Shown here: positions 1 through 4,265 of the stretch, piece by piece
Layout: each line of letters begins with the position of its first letter
Numbering within the stretch: position 1 is the stretch's first letter
IMG/VR virus record: IMGVR_UViG_2534681999_000005
From: a virus
Lineage: Duplodnaviria > Heunggongvirae > Uroviricota > Caudoviricetes
Reading direction: 5' to 3' (one strand)
DNA: 4,265 nucleotides
Program-made: the position numbers and the translations under genes
Notes under the pieces: model-generated
The model's input: only the letters and a program-made list of their open reading frames with translations
Told to the model about the DNA's origin: nothing
Databases searched by the model: none

Positions 1-599
1 GGAACGTGAAAACGGATTTATCAGCAACGGAAACGGCCTGGAAGCTGTGGGAACTTATGGGGGAGGTGTATTCGAACCGCTGGACCCAGAAGAACGGGGC
101 TGCGCCGTCGAAGCTCTGGATTGCTCAGATTGGCGCGATGACTGAACAGCAAATCCGGCAGGTCTGCCGTCAGTGCATGGACCGCTGCCGGGCGGGTGAA
201 ACGTGGCCTCCGGATCTGGCTGAGTTTGTGGCGTTGATTTCGGAGAGCGGGGCAAATCCATTTGGCCTGACGGTGGATGCCGTGATGGAGGAGTACCGTC
301 GCTGGAGGAATGAATCCTGGCGGTACGACGGGAGTGATAAATACCCGTGGCCACAGCCGGTGCTGTACCACATTTGCCTCGAGATGCGTGACAGAGGGAT
401 TGAGCGGCAGATGACGGAAGGTGAGTTAAAACGACTTGCAGAACGGCAACTGACGAAATGGGCAAAGCAAGTTGGTAACGGGATGAGTATTCCCCCGATC
501 CGGAGACAACTCGCATCGCCGAAGTGCCCGCAAGGGCCAACGCCAATTGAATTACTGAAACAGGAATACGAGCGCCGGAAGGCGGCTGGTTTTGTTTGA
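1..599 (+). CDS. Replication protein P-like (lambda P family helicase loader), 3' portion; probably 5'-truncated by the window edge
   Basis: Seen: the ORF is open to base 3 in frame, with the first in-window start a GTG at 6, and the TGA stop at 597-599. From memory: the C-terminal half (YPW...TEGELKRLAERQL...GNGMSIPPIRRQLASP) matches the pattern of lambda P (YPW...TDAELRRKAADEL...NRGEAIPEPVKQLP). Lambda P has roughly 35-40 more N-terminal residues, hence the likely truncation. Not verified by search. Confidence 0.7.
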   Translation, partial: NVKTDLSATETAWKLWELMGEVYSNRWTQKNGAAPSKLWIAQIGAMTEQQIRQVCRQCMDRCRAGETWPPDLAEFVALISESGANPFGLTVDAVMEEYRRWRNESWRYDGSDKYPWPQPVLYHICLEMRDRGIERQMTEGELKRLAERQLTKWAKQVGNGMSIPPIRRQLASPKCPQGPTPIELLKQEYERRKAAGFV

Positions 600-632
600 A
601 TCTGAGAAACGATTTTGTCGGAGGAAATTTTA

Positions 633-1349
633 ATGGAAACCGTATCTGACGCACTGAAAGCACTGAAAAGAGCCTCTTCACATGTGGTGGCAGCTCGCCT
701 TGGAATTAGTCGTGAAGAGGCTGTCAACGAACTGTGGAAACTGAAACGCCGTGGAGAAGCGGATAACAAGGGGGCGATATGGTGGCTGACTCAGGCTGGT
801 GAAAGTGAACCGGTGTCACCGGTACCGAAAGTGACGGCGCAAATGCTGACAGAGGCGATTGAACAACATGGCCCACAAACGGCGGATGAACTGGCATTGA
901 TGTTCGGAATTACCTCCCGCCGGGCGAATTCATCGCTGGCAATGGCAATCAGCAAAGGGTGTCTGATTCGCGTGAATCAGGATGGTAAATTTCGTTACTG
1001 CATACCGGGCGTTGATTTACCGGCAGAGCCGAAAGCAGCATCCGTAGCTGAAACGGAGGGTAAAGCCCTTCCTCAGCCAGCTGGTGTTGCGTTACCAGTC
1101 CAGGAAACGGCTGCACAGGAAGAAATTAAAACAGAAGCGGTGGAGGACATTGTGAAGTTGCAGCAATCGTTCACTGAAGCGAAAGCAGATGACCTGATTC
1201 TACCATCGCTGCATGTGGCTAACCGCGAGCTGCGCCGGGCGAAAAGTAATGTTCAGAAGTGGGAGCGAGTCTGTGCTGCGCTACGGGAACTGAACAAACA
1301 CAGGGATATTCTCCGGGATATTACCGCCACCAGAGAGCAGCAGCGGTGA
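633..1349 (+). CDS. Hypothetical prophage protein (238 aa) with two winged-helix-like segments and an acidic coiled-coil-like C-terminal half
   Basis: Seen: ATG at 633 preceded by GGAGG (620-624) at 8-nt spacing; the TTG at 615 from the ORF track has no SD. TGA stop at 1347-1349. HTH-like segments: [24 protein letters not shown] and [32 protein letters not shown]. Family not recognised with certainty. Confidence 0.6.
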
Positions 1350-1663
1350 GTGGCTGGAAGAAGTGGCGCTGGGCTGAAATCCTGATACTCCGGCAGTGTG
1401 CGGGAACGATGAGAGTCGAAAGCATCGGTTATCTGATTGGCCGTAGTGAGTCAGCCGTCAGGACGAAAGCGCGGGAACTGGGTATCAGCATGATGTTACG
1501 GGGTGATTATCACCAGTCAGCCAAATGTTCACAGCGTGATATTGAGCTGGCGTGGCAACTGCATCAGCGTGGTGTACCCCGACGGGAAATTGCCGAAAAG
1601 TTTGGGATGAAGTTGGGCGCAGTGAATAACTACGTTTATTTCGACAGGAGGGTTCAGGAGTGA
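1346..1663 (+). CDS. Small DNA-binding protein (105 aa) with two tandem GcrA-like HTH repeats
   Basis: Seen: GTG start at 1346 overlaps the upstream TGA stop (GTGA), suggesting translational coupling. The ORF-track ATG at 1259 would overlap the upstream gene by 91 nt and has no SD; the ATG at 1409 would cut off the first repeat. Repeats: W-x2-W-x2-E...[17 protein letters not shown] and [27 protein letters not shown], resembling the GcrA N-terminal HTH pattern (from memory). Start is uncertain between 1346 and 1409. Confidence 0.5.
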
Positions 1664-1962
1664 GGGTGAGGGTTTATATCGCCGGTCCGATGACGGGATA
1701 TGAAAATTTTAACCGCGAGGCATTTCACAAAACGGAAGAGGTGCTGAAACGGGAAGGGCATACCGTTTTAAACCCGGCAGTACTTCCGGACGGGCTGACT
1801 CAGCCACACTACATGGATATTTGCATGGCAATGCTCCGTTGCGTGGATGCGGTTTACATGCTGAAAGGCTGGCAGCAGTCGGCAGGTGCAGGGGCTGAGC
1901 TGGCACTGGAGGAGAAACCGGGCCATGCGGTGATTTTTCAGGAGGTGGGCAGTGAATATTGA
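1660..1962 (+). CDS. DUF4406-like protein (nucleoside 2-deoxyribosyltransferase-like fold), 100 aa
   Basis: Seen: GTG at 1660 overlaps the upstream TGA (GTGA), with AGGAGG-like sequence 8-14 nt upstream. The N-terminal motif VYIAGPMTGY, followed by NPA...and GW.QS.GA..E, matches what I recall of the DUF4406 / N-deoxyribosyltransferase-like family common in enterobacterial prophages. Not search-verified. Confidence 0.65.
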   Translation: MRVRVYIAGPMTGYENFNREAFHKTEEVLKREGHTVLNPAVLPDGLTQPHYMDICMAMLRCVDAVYMLKGWQQSAGAGAELALEEKPGHAVIFQEVGSEY

Positions 1963-2269
1963 CCCGGCGATAACGATTGATATGGCCCTGAACGCCGGCC
2001 TGGCACTTCTTGGTTATTTCTACATTATGTTCTGCAGCGGACGATGGCTGTCACTGTTGTTCATGAAAAAATGGAATAAACGCCGTAAGCAGGAGCAACG
2101 CCAGAAGGCAATGGATGCATTTTTCGAAGCCTTCGGAATTGACGGCATGGAACCAGGGGATCCAGCTCGCGCAATCAGCAGAGGGGGTGTAGTAATCCTT
2201 GTATATCGGAGTGAAGAGAAAAATGACGATCACAAAACAACGTGTAGAAGAAATCATATCCCGCATTGA
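1952..2269 (+). CDS. Small membrane-anchored protein (105 aa): one hydrophobic helix followed by a basic/charged region
   Basis: Seen: GTG at 1952 with GGAGG (1941-1945) 6 nt upstream; it overlaps the preceding gene's end by 11 nt. Hydrophobic segment ALNAGLALLGYFYIMFCSGRWLSLLF, then KKWNKRRKQEQRQK. The 3' end overlaps the next gene by about 47 nt and that tail looks low-quality, so the gene's reality and extent are uncertain. An alternative start is the ATG at 1982. Confidence 0.4.
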   Translation: MNIDPAITIDMALNAGLALLGYFYIMFCSGRWLSLLFMKKWNKRRKQEQRQKAMDAFFEAFGIDGMEPGDPARAISRGGVVILVYRSEEKNDDHKTTCRRNHIPH

Positions 2270-2540
2270 AATGTATGGACATGGTGCAGGGTATATCGCA
2301 GACGAGGTTAATGATCTGGCTATACTGGCGCTGAATTTATCAAATATCGCGAACCTGAAGCGATACGAGCTTGATATGGGAGGTTGCGACTCGTGCGGTC
2401 AGGATTGTGGCGCTGATATGACTGAAGATCCTGATGGTGATTATGTCCTGTTTGATGACGTGGTTAAGTTGTTTGAATTTGATACAACCACTCAAAAGTT
2501 AGAAATCCCGGCAAAGGAGGCAGCCAGTGGGCAAGATTGA
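2223..2540 (+). CDS. Hypothetical acidic protein (105 aa) with a Cys cluster (CDSCGQDCG)
   Basis: Seen: ATG at 2223 with GGAG/GAAGAG purine-rich sequence upstream; TGA stop at 2538-2540. In-frame alternatives are TTG 2199, GTG 2211 and ATG 2271. 2223 is preferred because the resulting N-terminus (MTITKQR...YGHG) parallels the N-terminus of the 185-aa protein at 3160. Confidence 0.5.
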   Translation: MTITKQRVEEIISRIEMYGHGAGYIADEVNDLAILALNLSNIANLKRYELDMGGCDSCGQDCGADMTEDPDGDYVLFDDVVKLFEFDTTTQKLEIPAKEAASGQD

Positions 2541-2964
2541 CTATCAGGCACTGCGTGAGGCAGCACAAAACTATCAATCGACGCTGGCGTGGTATCAGGC
2601 TACCCCGGACAGCCCAAATGCTGAACGGGATTGTGATGCGGCTCTTGCTGCGTTTAAGCGTCACATCCGTCATCGGGAAGCGGATATTATCGCTGATTTG
2701 CTGGATGGACTGGAAGAAGCAAAATCACAACTCAACGAGCAGCGTGAGTATTACGAAGGCGTTATCTCTGATGGGAGCAAGCGTATTGCTGAACTGGAAG
2801 CGCGGGAAGTTCAATTACCGACTCGCTACGACCTTCGATATGGACACCCGATAAATGCAGATGAGCGACATGTCATGATACCTAAAGAAAATGGCAGTTG
2901 GCTTTACCTGATTGACCTAGAACACGCATTACGCGTCGCTGGCATTCGCATCAAAGGAGAGTGA
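2527..2964 (+). CDS. Ead/Ea22-like prophage protein (145 aa)
   Basis: Seen: GTG at 2527 preceded by AAGGAGG (2514-2520) at 6-nt spacing; it overlaps the upstream gene by 14 nt. From memory: N-terminal IDYQALREAA and the C-terminal block SQLNEQREYYEGVISDGSKRIAELE...AGIRIKGE closely match phage lambda Ea22 (KSKLNEQREYYEGVISDGSKRIAKLE...AGIRIKGE). Confidence 0.75.
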   Translation: MGKIDYQALREAAQNYQSTLAWYQATPDSPNAERDCDAALAAFKRHIRHREADIIADLLDGLEEAKSQLNEQREYYEGVISDGSKRIAELEAREVQLPTRYDLRYGHPINADERHVMIPKENGSWLYLIDLEHALRVAGIRIKGE

Positions 2965-2965
2965 G

Positions 2966-3157
2966 ATGAACGGACAAATATCAATTGTTCGACCAGGAGC
3001 ATGTGACGATCGCGAAATACGAATGATTATTCGTCTGGCGATGGGGAAAACAATAACTGCTCTCATTACTCCAGAAAATCTCGCATTAGCATTAACAGGA
3101 AAGTCAGACATGCCAGTAGAGCTAAAGCTGCGAAATGTTGAGATTAAGGTGAAATAG
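2966..3157 (+). CDS. Hypothetical small protein (63 aa)
   Basis: Seen: ATG at 2966, one nt after the upstream TGA, with GGAGAG 6 nt upstream; TAG stop at 3155-3157. No recognisable family. Confidence 0.5.
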   Translation: MNGQISIVRPGACDDREIRMIIRLAMGKTITALITPENLALALTGKSDMPVELKLRNVEIKVK

Positions 3158-3159
3158 CT

Positions 3160-3717
3160 ATGACCACTATTACCAAAGATCGACTGCTGACAATCCAGCA
3201 TTGGCGCGAAACATACGGACCGGGTAGCAACGTTGTGCTTCCAGCAGAAGAAGCGGAAGAGCTGGCACGGATTGCGCTGGCATCACTGGCAGCAGTATCG
3301 GATGAACGAGCAGCCTATGAATTATTTATGGAGAAGCGTTTCGGAGAATCTGTAGATCGCCGCAGAGCAAAAAATGGCGATAGAGATTACATGGTATGGG
3401 ATATGGCGCTTGGCTGGATTATCTGGTGTCACCGCGCCGCCATGCTTCAGGCTGGAAACTTTCGGGAAAATAAGGGTTCGTCAACCAATAATTTTCGGAT
3501 AATCTCGGAAACGTCAACCAACTCTCCGGCAATCCCTGATGAGGTGTTGTCCGCAATCCTGAAGGTCGCCAGGCTTCGTGCAGATTTCGATGCTTCTGAA
3601 GTGGACAGGCGAGGTATCGGTAGTTGTCTGGATGAGGCCGAGCAAGAACTTATCGTTACCATTAACGAATACGCCAGTCAGATCGCAGTAGAAGCGACAC
3701 AGGGGGAGAACCAATGA
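3160..3717 (+). CDS. Hypothetical prophage protein (185 aa)
   Basis: Seen: ATG at 3160 with AGGTG (3147-3151) 8 nt upstream; TGA stop at 3715-3717. The N-terminus MTTITKDRLLTIQHWRETYGPG resembles that of the 2223 gene. No family recognised. Confidence 0.6.
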   Translation: MTTITKDRLLTIQHWRETYGPGSNVVLPAEEAEELARIALASLAAVSDERAAYELFMEKRFGESVDRRRAKNGDRDYMVWDMALGWIIWCHRAAMLQAGNFRENKGSSTNNFRIISETSTNSPAIPDEVLSAILKVARLRADFDASEVDRRGIGSCLDEAEQELIVTINEYASQIAVEATQGENQ

Positions 3718-3791
3718 GCCGGCCAGATGCATTTGCAGGCGTTGCTATAGCTATTGCTTTTCTAGTATATGTTATTTGTCGGTGGGGGTAA
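3714..3791 (+). CDS. Tiny hydrophobic peptide ORF (25 aa: MSRPDAFAGVAIAIAFLVYVICRWG), putative small membrane protein
   Basis: Seen: ATG at 3714 overlaps the upstream TGA (ATGA); strong SD AGGGGGAG (3701-3708) about 5 nt upstream; TAA stop at 3789-3791. The peptide is almost entirely hydrophobic. Translated by hand; below the ORF-track length cutoff. Confidence 0.35.
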   Translation: MSRPDAFAGVAIAIAFLVYVICRWG

Positions 3792-3826: not shown

Positions 3827-3931
3827 ATGTCGGATGATATTTCACTGGTAATGGAAGGCGCTCTGGCTGTTATTGCTGTTGTGGGTGTTTACTGCCTGGT
3901 TGTGTTTTTGATGGAGCGCCTGGGGAACTGA
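3827..3931 (+). CDS. Tiny single-TM peptide ORF (34 aa: MSDDISLVMEGALAVIAVVGVYCLVVFLMERLGN)
   Basis: Seen: ATG at 3827 preceded by AAGGGAGGG (3816-3824) with about 2-5 nt spacing depending on where the SD core is placed; TGA stop at 3929-3931. Acidic N-terminus, about 20-residue hydrophobic core, charged C-terminus. Translated by hand. Confidence 0.4.
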   Translation: MSDDISLVMEGALAVIAVVGVYCLVVFLMERLGN

Positions 3932-3999: not shown

Positions 4000-4017
4000 T
4001 GCTGCGGGTGCTTGAGG

Positions 4018-4053
4018 CTGTCTGCCTCGGGCATGCCACCGTAAGGCAGACAG
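4018..4053 (+). other. Stem-loop in the hok leader: perfect 10-bp stem with a 16-nt loop
   Basis: Seen: CTGTCTGCCT (4018-4027) is the exact reverse complement of AGGCAGACAG (4044-4053). No U-tract follows on either strand, so this is a structural RNA element rather than a terminator. Confidence 0.45.
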
Positions 4054-4059
4054 AGAAAA

Positions 4060-4126
4060 GCCCCAGTTAACATTACGCGTCCTGCAAGACGCTTAACATT
4101 AATCTGAGGCCCAATCTATGCTTCAC
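4060..4126 (-). ncRNA. sok: Candidate Sok-like antisense RNA, antitoxin of the type I hok system (boundaries approximate)
   Basis: Inference from established hok/sok organisation: Sok is a roughly 60-70 nt antisense RNA covering the mok translation-initiation region. A promoter-like element on the minus strand would start transcription near 4125, opposite the mok-like ATG at 4118. No canonical terminator was identified, so the 3' end is a guess. Confidence 0.3.
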
Positions 4127-4265
4127 AAACGTAGGTTAGCCTCTTACGCGCCGAAAGGCAAGGAGAAGCAGGCTATGAAGCAGCAAAAGGCGATGTTAAT
4201 CGCCCTGATCGTCATCTGTTTAACCGTCATAGTGACGGCACTGGTAACGAGGAAAGACCTCTGCG
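4118..4265 (+). CDS. mok: mok-like in-frame upstream start giving a 19-codon N-terminal extension of hok (MLHKRRLASYAPKGKEKQA-MKQQK...); partial
   Basis: Seen: ATG at 4118 is in frame with the hok ATG at 4175, with no intervening stop, and GAGG lies 8 nt upstream. From memory: this resembles the in-frame MokC extension of chromosomal hokC (ML...KVKEKRAMKQHK). Confidence 0.4.
   Translation, partial: MLHKRRLASYAPKGKEKQAMKQQKAMLIALIVICLTVIVTALVTRKDLC
4133..4161 (-). promoter_or_regulatory. Candidate sigma70 promoter for the Sok-like antisense RNA
   Basis: Seen on the minus strand: -35-like TTGCCT (complement of 4156-4161), 17-bp spacer, -10-like TAACCT (complement of 4133-4138). The most conserved -10 positions (TA...T) are present. 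Confidence 0.3.
4175..4265 (+). CDS. hok: Hok/Gef-family type I toxin (HokD/RelF- or HokC-like), first 30 codons; 3'-truncated by the window edge
   Basis: Seen: ATG at 4175 with AAGGAG (4160-4165) 9 nt upstream. Translation MKQQKAMLIALIVICLTVIVTALVTRKDLC matches, from memory, the N-terminus of E. coli HokD/RelF and is very close to HokC/Gef (MKQHKAMIVALIVICITAVVAALVTRKDLC). The ORF runs off the window. Confidence 0.85.
   Translation, partial: MKQQKAMLIALIVICLTVIVTALVTRKDLC

Follow-up and report, generated by a model that had tools for sequence, protein, structure and literature searches.

Does a protein of 105 residues, encoded among the early genes of an enterobacterial prophage, carry the DNA-binding head of GcrA twice over, and does it act on transcription as GcrA does? 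The question was raised by a sequence-only reading of the locus, which found the pattern W...E..L...G.S...IA...G....AV in both halves of the protein, took them for a tandem repeat of GcrA-like helix-turn-helix (HTH) units, and proposed that the product might modulate sigma-70 promoters. The answer we reach is divided. The resemblance to GcrA proved a useful pointer for the first half of the protein; it fails for the second half and for the inference about function. We believe that the gene product is probably an ordinary DNA-binding protein of a phage, rather than a sigma-70 cofactor of the GcrA type, so that the analysis corrects an inference that was attractive but wrong. The protein is uncharacterized yet already annotated as a "DNA-binding protein," and a literature search on the protein, on prophage DUF1627, and on GcrA-like phage proteins returned no paper on this family. 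Phage early regions often encode small HTH proteins, so specialists will not find the result surprising. For an early prophage gene that is abundant yet listed as "hypothetical," it does offer a concrete proposal open to test: the product may be a bipartite DNA binder, the first module of which has the fold of the GcrA DNA-binding domain (DBD).

The Gene and Its Operon

The DNA analyzed here, a stretch of 4,265 bases that we call the window, is 99% identical to the lambdoid prophage adjoining potC in E. coli O157:H7. The prophage origin that had been suspected is thereby confirmed, and the window corresponds to the right-hand early operon of that prophage. Its genes all lie on the + strand, with overlapping stop and start codons at most junctions, and they follow one another in the order end of an O-like gene, replication protein P, DUF1627, the 105-codon ORF, DUF4406, and DUF4752; 3′ of DUF4752 come several unknown genes, an Ea22-like gene, a DUF551 gene, and a hokD/sok toxin-antitoxin locus. 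A co-directional chain of about ten genes extends from 138 to 3717 (+), its stop and start codons overlapping or abutting (GTGA at 1346 and again at 1660, 11 nucleotides [nt] at 1952, 47 nt at 2223, 14 nt at 2527, and ATGA at 3714), an arrangement that points to a single translationally coupled early transcript. Scans of the window for promoters and terminators gave no signal above shuffled expectation, and PADLOC models, applied at E ≤ 0.01, matched neither the 105-residue protein nor seven neighbors.

The ORF itself is real. RefSeq/PGAP annotates it at identical coordinates in O157:H7 str. SS52, where WP_000017339.1 is listed as a "hypothetical protein"; elsewhere in the public collection the identical protein sequence, found in at least 1000 contigs, is named "DNA-binding protein." The GTGA overlap between its start and the preceding stop is present as described, and on sequence grounds it indicates translational coupling to the DUF1627 gene. 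Coordinates are collected in Table 1.

Table 1. Features of the 105-residue ORF, its product, and the adjoining genes (window coordinates)
Feature	Position	Strand	Basis
Whole ORF, 105 aa plus stop, WP_000017339.1	1346..1663	+	ORF list, translation; PGAP
DUF1627 gene, upstream in same operon	633..1349	+	Pfam PF07789, E 2.3e-81; annotation
DUF4406 gene (nucleoside 2-deoxyribosyltransferase-like), downstream in same operon	1660..1962	+	Pfam PF14359, E 2e-33; PHROG 355
GTGA overlap, GTG start (1346-1348) over DUF1627 TGA (1347-1349)	1346..1349	+	sequence
GTGA overlap, ORF TGA (1661-1663) over DUF4406 GTG start (1660)	1660..1663	+	sequence, ORF list, annotation
Internal ATG (Met22), alternative start of the sequence-only reading; probably not the main start	1409..1411	+	homologue conservation, model
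Module 1 (residues 7-48), predicted three-helix HTH bundle, GcrA-DBD / Myb / Tc3-like	1364..1489	+	AlphaFold2
Linker (residues 49-62), motif M(M/L)LRGDxHQSAKY	1490..1531	+	homologue alignment
Module 2 (residues 63-104), predicted three-helix HTH, resolvase / IS21 IstA / sigma-70 region 4 / HTH_23 type	1532..1657	+	

Several observations concern the neighboring genes. Near its 3′ end the window carries a hok/sok-type type I toxin-antitoxin locus at 4006-4180 (+) (Rfam sok RF01794, 116 bits, E 6e-27). A Hok-like toxin ORF (MKQQKAMLIALIVICLTVIVTALVTRKDLC...), hokD in the SS52 annotation, begins at 4175 and continues past the window end. Directly 5′ of this locus are two very small ORFs, 3714-3791 and 3827-3931 (+), the products of which are hydrophobic, single-transmembrane-like peptides (MSRPDAFAGVAIAIAFLVYVICRWG and MSDDISLVMEGALAVIAVVGVYCLVVFLMERLGN); the second is a hypothetical protein in the SS52 annotation. 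The N-terminus of the DUF1627 protein contains two weak winged-helix-like segments (residues 2-47 and 66-123) that match MarR, Crp, TrmB, and AlkZ-like families at E 1e-3 to 0.2, and the DUF1627 protein may be a DNA binder too. When proteins are clustered at 90% identity, the 105-residue protein falls in one cluster with DUF1627 proteins (representative 238 residues).

The Start Codon

Much depends on where translation begins, and public annotations of the gene start disagree, giving products of 105, 93, and 84 residues (window positions 1346, 1382, and 1409). Initiation at Met22, the alternative that had been raised at the outset, or near codon 13, would truncate the first module and leave what is effectively a single-HTH product. 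Met22 is invariant in the homologue alignment, close alleles are publicly annotated at both of the shorter lengths, and the Shine-Dalgarno-like sequence ahead of GTG 1346 is weak. Against this, the residues ahead of Met22 are conserved at the protein level. Residues 7-21 (W..AEI.I.RQCAG) are conserved in homologues at 59-84% identity, across six enterobacterial genera (Escherichia, Salmonella, Pantoea, Enterobacter, Citrobacter, and Pluralibacter) and also in more distant relatives. In the AlphaFold2 model these residues make up helix 1 of module 1, and the helix is packed into the bundle with high confidence (pLDDT 88-90 over residues 11-20). The GTG/TGA overlap and the open frame are kept in four E. 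coli alleles with 81-86% nucleotide identity, the other two frames of which contain stops. Variable sites in codons 2-21 of five alleles are distributed 3/3/5 over the three codon positions, too few to decide coding, so the start assignment rests on protein-level conservation. Taken together, these findings favor a start at or near 1346 over ATG 1409, and we regard initiation at Met22 or near codon 13 as highly improbable. The shorter annotated gene models probably truncate module 1. At four of the compared loci (L014-L017), where the positions at issue are 437 and 401, the alleles retain the GTG/TGA overlap and the conserved N-terminal helix.

Two Modules, Two Subtypes

An AlphaFold2 model built on a 21-sequence alignment (mean pLDDT 77 and pTM 0.48 for the whole model) consists of two three-helix HTH bundles, residues 9-45 and 63-104, with one linker between them, which bears out the suggestion that the protein contains two HTH-type units. 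In module 1 the helices span residues 9-18, 24-31, and 35-45, with a block pLDDT of 89-92; modelled alone, this module has a pLDDT of 81. Those of module 2 span residues 63-74, 79-86, and 90-104 (block pLDDT 69-86). Few parts of the sequence are as well conserved as the linker, where L51, G53, H56, and S58 never vary, and a similar motif is found in distant relatives with the module orders 1-2 and 1-1-2. Its structure and the orientation of the modules to one another are poorly predicted (pTM 0.48; pLDDT about 54 over residues 51-60). The protein is basic (pI 10.0; 19 Lys plus Arg versus 11 Asp plus Glu), and five basic residues located within the recognition helices or preceding them (R33, R39, K41, R101, and R102) vary little or not at all.

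Are the two modules copies of one another? The exact motif said to occur in both halves matches neither of them; what does occur twice is a shorter HTH core, I[AG]...G....AV, at residues 27 and 82, a spacing of exactly 55. Aligned as single sequences by Smith-Waterman, the halves score no better than shuffles (a fraction of 0.89 of which reach the observed score), and hhalign of their close-family profiles (Neff about 1.6) is not significant, with a probability of 2-3%. A recent tandem duplication is rejected on these two grounds. When broad profiles of the two modules are compared, they do align (probability 96%, score 36.4; column-shuffled maximum 11.4), which makes the modules distant relatives within the HTH superfamily. 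The proposed tandem repeat therefore holds as a pair of HTH modules recognized by structure and broad profiles, but not as significant sequence similarity between the halves.

The second module is the source of the sub-threshold Pfam matches of the protein, to Sigma70_r4_2, HTH_68, HTH_23, and HTH_7. For the 105-residue protein, Sigma70_r4_2 (PF08281) scores 21.2 bits against a gathering score of 25.7, HTH_23 (PF13384) 16.2 against 24.6, and HTH_7 (PF02796) 16.0 against 23.8. If sub-threshold matches are included, Sigma70_r4_2 is matched by 21 of 21 homologues (best E 7.9e-7), and Terminase_5 is matched by 8 of the 21; many homologues have precomputed PF08281 or PF13384 assignments. Across Pfam, PDB, and fold comparisons, the neighbors of module 2 are Sigma70_r4_2, HTH_23, HTH_7 (resolvase), the IS21 IstA HTH, and small terminase. 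Matches to resolvase, small terminase, and sigma region 4 are strong with the full model and weaker or absent with module 1 alone. Module 2 is, in short, an HTH of a different subtype from module 1. It resembles the N-terminal HTH of IS21 IstA (8b4h, 8q4d), resolvase HTH_7, and sigma-70 region 4, but the resemblance is to an HTH without the catalytic or sigma context of those proteins, and the Pfam scores are sub-threshold.

Module 1 and GcrA

GcrA of Caulobacter crescentus is an alphaproteobacterial chromosomal regulator, whereas the gene described here belongs to enterobacterial prophages. In GcrA the DBD stands at the N-terminus, and about 64 linker residues separate it from the C-terminal sigma-70-interacting domain (SID), which binds sigma-70 region 2 (PMC5887438). 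Module 1 shares the three-helix fold of the GcrA DBD (PF07750; PDB 5yiu/5yiv/5yiw), and in structural comparison the GcrA DBD is its nearest neighbor.

Direct searches did not detect this relationship. The check recommended at the outset, a comparison with the Pfam GcrA model, was negative: PF07750 was not matched by the 105-residue protein at E ≤ 1 or by module 2 alone at E ≤ 10, and module 1 alone had no Pfam match whatever at E ≤ 10. When the 21 homologues were scanned at E ≤ 10, GcrA was absent from the 25 most-matched families. Pfam and NCBIfam scans of the protein gave no family above threshold, and GcrA was absent from the results when PDB sequences were searched with the profile; TPR-type matches in the latter search were dismissed as compositional noise. 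Neither half was significantly similar to GcrA by hhalign when the close-family alignment alone was used (Neff about 1.6).

The similarity emerges when the profile is broadened. From the best 150 of 1,303 relatives we assembled a module-1 profile of 153 domains from 126 proteins (100 single-copy) and compared it by hhalign with an alignment of 85 distinct GcrA DBD sequences. The two align over 42 columns, corresponding to GcrA residues 3-46, with a probability of 97.3% and a score of 45.2; controls in which the profile was reversed or column-shuffled scored at most 11.5. Against the Pfam GcrA model, which is 155 positions long and has a gathering score of 26.9 bits, the broad module-1 consensus scores 19.2 bits, below that cut-off. 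The extra N-terminal module of a three-module relative, P0134, scores 23.4 bits, and two multi-copy relatives, P0127 (36.5 bits) and P0153 (34.9 bits), lie above the cut-off. What is matched in the relatives is positions 2-52 of the 155, and nothing beyond. Since the similarity appears only after the profile is broadened, it is supported by transitive profile evidence together with structure. For module 2, the alignment with GcrA is limited to helices 1-2 (27 columns). Of the two halves claimed to be GcrA-like, then, the first is so by broad profile and by fold, and the second belongs to another HTH subtype.

Does module 1 bring GcrA function with it? A GcrA-type cofactor would dock on sigma-70 and carry a methylation-reading DNA-binding head to promoters. 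The structural proximity of module 1 to the GcrA DBD, its alignment with that domain at the profile level, and the two relatives that exceed the Pfam cut-off are what this proposal has in its favor. The 105-residue protein, however, lacks both the long linker and the SID: nothing follows the second HTH bundle, and the C-terminal half that might have held a SID is itself an HTH. The residues by which GcrA recognizes DNA and methyl-adenine are R33, N34, I37, G38, K39, and R42 (PMC5887438). In the hhalign register these become E35, S36, R39, T40, K41, and E44; base contacts and methyl pocket are not conserved, and the sole contact residue retained is the backbone-contacting Lys, K39, which corresponds to the conserved K41. 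Judged from its sequence by Pfam score, SID, and methyl-pocket residues, the protein does not appear to be a member of the GcrA family. The host, too, is an enterobacterium, not known to have a CcrM/GANTC system. For these reasons a cofactor of the GcrA type seems to us extremely unlikely, and the suggestion that the protein acts on sigma-70 promoters has no basis, the SID being the part of GcrA that contacts sigma-70. The analysis likewise gave no support for methylation reading.

A GcrA-like module coupled to a second HTH might conceivably do something else, either sensing whether DNA has been methylated or replicated (by telling hemimethylated from fully Dam-methylated sites, for example) and so timing early phage expression or replication, or standing in for sigma-70 region 4 at particular promoters. 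We give such schemes very little credence, although either, if true, would mean that GcrA-style non-canonical regulation reaches beyond the Alphaproteobacteria.

A Probable Bipartite DNA-Binding Protein

The closest whole-chain analogues of the protein lie elsewhere. Tc3 transposase (1u78), the Pax paired domain (1pdn, 1k78), Myb R2R3 (1h89), and the archaeal CRISPR-repeat-binding protein Cbp2 (2lvs) likewise place two linked three-helix HTHs in one short chain, and these bipartite domains are of similar size, about 100-105 residues. Foldseek, run on the whole chain, ranks Cbp2 (2lvs) and the Tc3 bipartite domain (1u78) highest, at E 0.02-0.1, and Cbp2 is also matched by the family sequence profile (E 4e-4). 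Whole-chain matches in the PDB are weak (E ≥ 0.02) because the orientation between the modules is undefined, and sequence identity to the bipartite HTH domains is only 12-20%. The family studied here differs from them further in the LRGDxHQSAKY linker, which is specific to it, in the differing subtypes of its two modules, and in having no transposase or other catalytic domain attached. Among phage protein families, PHROG 323 ("transcriptional regulator, D5-like") is matched by residues 5-104 over profile positions 147-248 (E 1.8e-24, 87.9 bits). That profile is 319 positions long, so the 105-residue protein corresponds to its middle part only, and the label is an annotation by transfer; "D5-like" possibly refers to phage T5 gene D5.

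On balance we think that the protein is more probably than otherwise a monomeric bipartite DNA-binding protein, likely a transcription regulator. According to this proposal, a small basic phage protein would be expressed from the early operon of a lambdoid prophage, a long series of translationally coupled genes, and it would carry two non-identical HTH modules in one chain, the N-terminal one of the GcrA-DBD/Myb/Tc3 type and the C-terminal one of the resolvase/IS21-IstA/sigma-4 type. The monomer would bind an asymmetric DNA site, a mode of binding we propose because the nearest whole-chain analogues are single-chain bipartite HTH binders. Each recognition helix would occupy one of two neighboring major-groove positions, with the conserved linker bridging them. 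Given that an effector domain is absent, the protein would presumably act by occupancy, as a repressor, an activator, or an architectural factor at phage or host promoters during early lytic development.

Several findings argue for a DNA binder: two bundles predicted with good confidence, the conserved basic residues of the recognition helices, the high pI, the match to PHROG 323, and the name "DNA-binding protein" that NCBI gives to homologues. Others count against it. The Pfam HTH matches of the 105-residue protein all fall below gathering thresholds, the whole-chain Foldseek matches are weak with the inter-module orientation poorly predicted, and the varying partner and position of the gene, described below, point to no target.

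SANT/Myb-like and sigma-4-like folds are also capable of protein-protein contacts, and the two modules could serve such contacts instead. The protein might be a sigma-4-like or SANT-like decoy on the RNA polymerase beta-flap, on a host regulator, or on a phage partner, that is, an appropriator or anti-factor. Sigma-4 and SANT domains are indeed among the structural neighbors, sub-threshold Sigma70_r4_2 matches run through the whole homologue set, and a small early phage product without an effector domain would suit the role. The strongly basic character of the protein does not, and neither does the finding that its best-conserved surface residues sit at recognition-helix positions; moreover, the nearest structural neighbors (GcrA DBD, Tc3, Myb, IstA, and resolvase) are all DNA binders. 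We consider a protein-contact role unlikely, while allowing it some weight.

Relatives and Gene Neighborhoods

The gene is a common one in E. coli prophages, with relatives in phages of Salmonella, Pantoea, Enterobacter, and Vibrio. Sequences sharing at least 80% DNA identity with it are present in 769 of 5,426 complete E. coli genomes, the carriers including O157:H7 and other Shiga-toxin-producing strains. A megablast search of a phage collection with the ORF found nothing; phage homologues were recovered by protein-level search, and the P1-like phage D6, Vibrio phages, and Mu-like elements also carry homologues.

The gene is always found inside the co-directional early operon of some temperate element, at a place that varies. 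It comes after the replication genes in the O157:H7 prophage and in Pluralibacter; in Salmonella and Pantoea it has recE-type genes on one side and xis-int on the other. No neighbor is constant across the compared loci. The upstream partners in phage D6 and in one Vibrio phage have no similarity to DUF1627, so the two genes do not form a conserved pair. The gene directly 5′ of the phage D6 homologue (L002 4387-4998) may be related to DUF4406, on a by-eye resemblance: the D6 fragments "EGHIVLNPA" and "YMDICLAM," seen in a BLASTP comparison with another protein, look like parts of the DUF4406 protein of the window.

These neighborhoods bear on whether any DNA recognized by the protein is a regulatory site at all. 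Instead of regulating transcription, the protein could be a helper that recognizes DNA in recombination, transposition, or packaging, much as a recombination directionality factor (RDF) or a small terminase does. The likeness of module 2 to the HTHs of resolvase, IS21 IstA, and small terminase fits such a role, as do the Terminase_5 matches in some homologues, the place of the gene a few genes 5′ of xis-int in Salmonella and Pantoea, and the homologues in Mu-like elements. In the O157:H7 prophage and in Pluralibacter, however, the gene is far from int/xis and from the packaging genes; the protein is without an oligomerization domain of the small-terminase kind, and the gene has no constant neighbor. 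An accessory role of this sort is, in our estimate, improbable, and we continue to prefer a bipartite DNA binder that regulates transcription.

Architecture is more regular than gene position. A library-wide profile search retrieved the 1,303 relatives from which the broad profile was drawn; among the best 150 representatives, 45 proteins have the architecture 1-2 (median 107 residues) and 48 the architecture 1-1-2 (median 166 residues). The dominance of these two orders suggests that the module pair works as a unit. In a larger context, the GcrA-type head is part of a much wider family of modules marked by W..E...L / GR(S/T)..AV..KA..LG(I/L), a family whose members occur alone, in the ordered 1-2 and 1-1-2 architectures, or repeated in arrays that reach about 13 copies.

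The arrays come from metagenomic sequences. P0127 (791 residues), P0128 (1621 residues), P0144, P0151, and P0153 are large proteins in which module 1 is repeated in tandem, 5 to about 13 times, and in P0127 and similar proteins the repeated unit reads W..E...L......EIA..LGR(S/T)..AV..KA..LG(I/L). Some of these poly-module-1 proteins exceed the Pfam thresholds for GcrA and Myb. The poly-HTH architecture appears to have gone unstudied so far.
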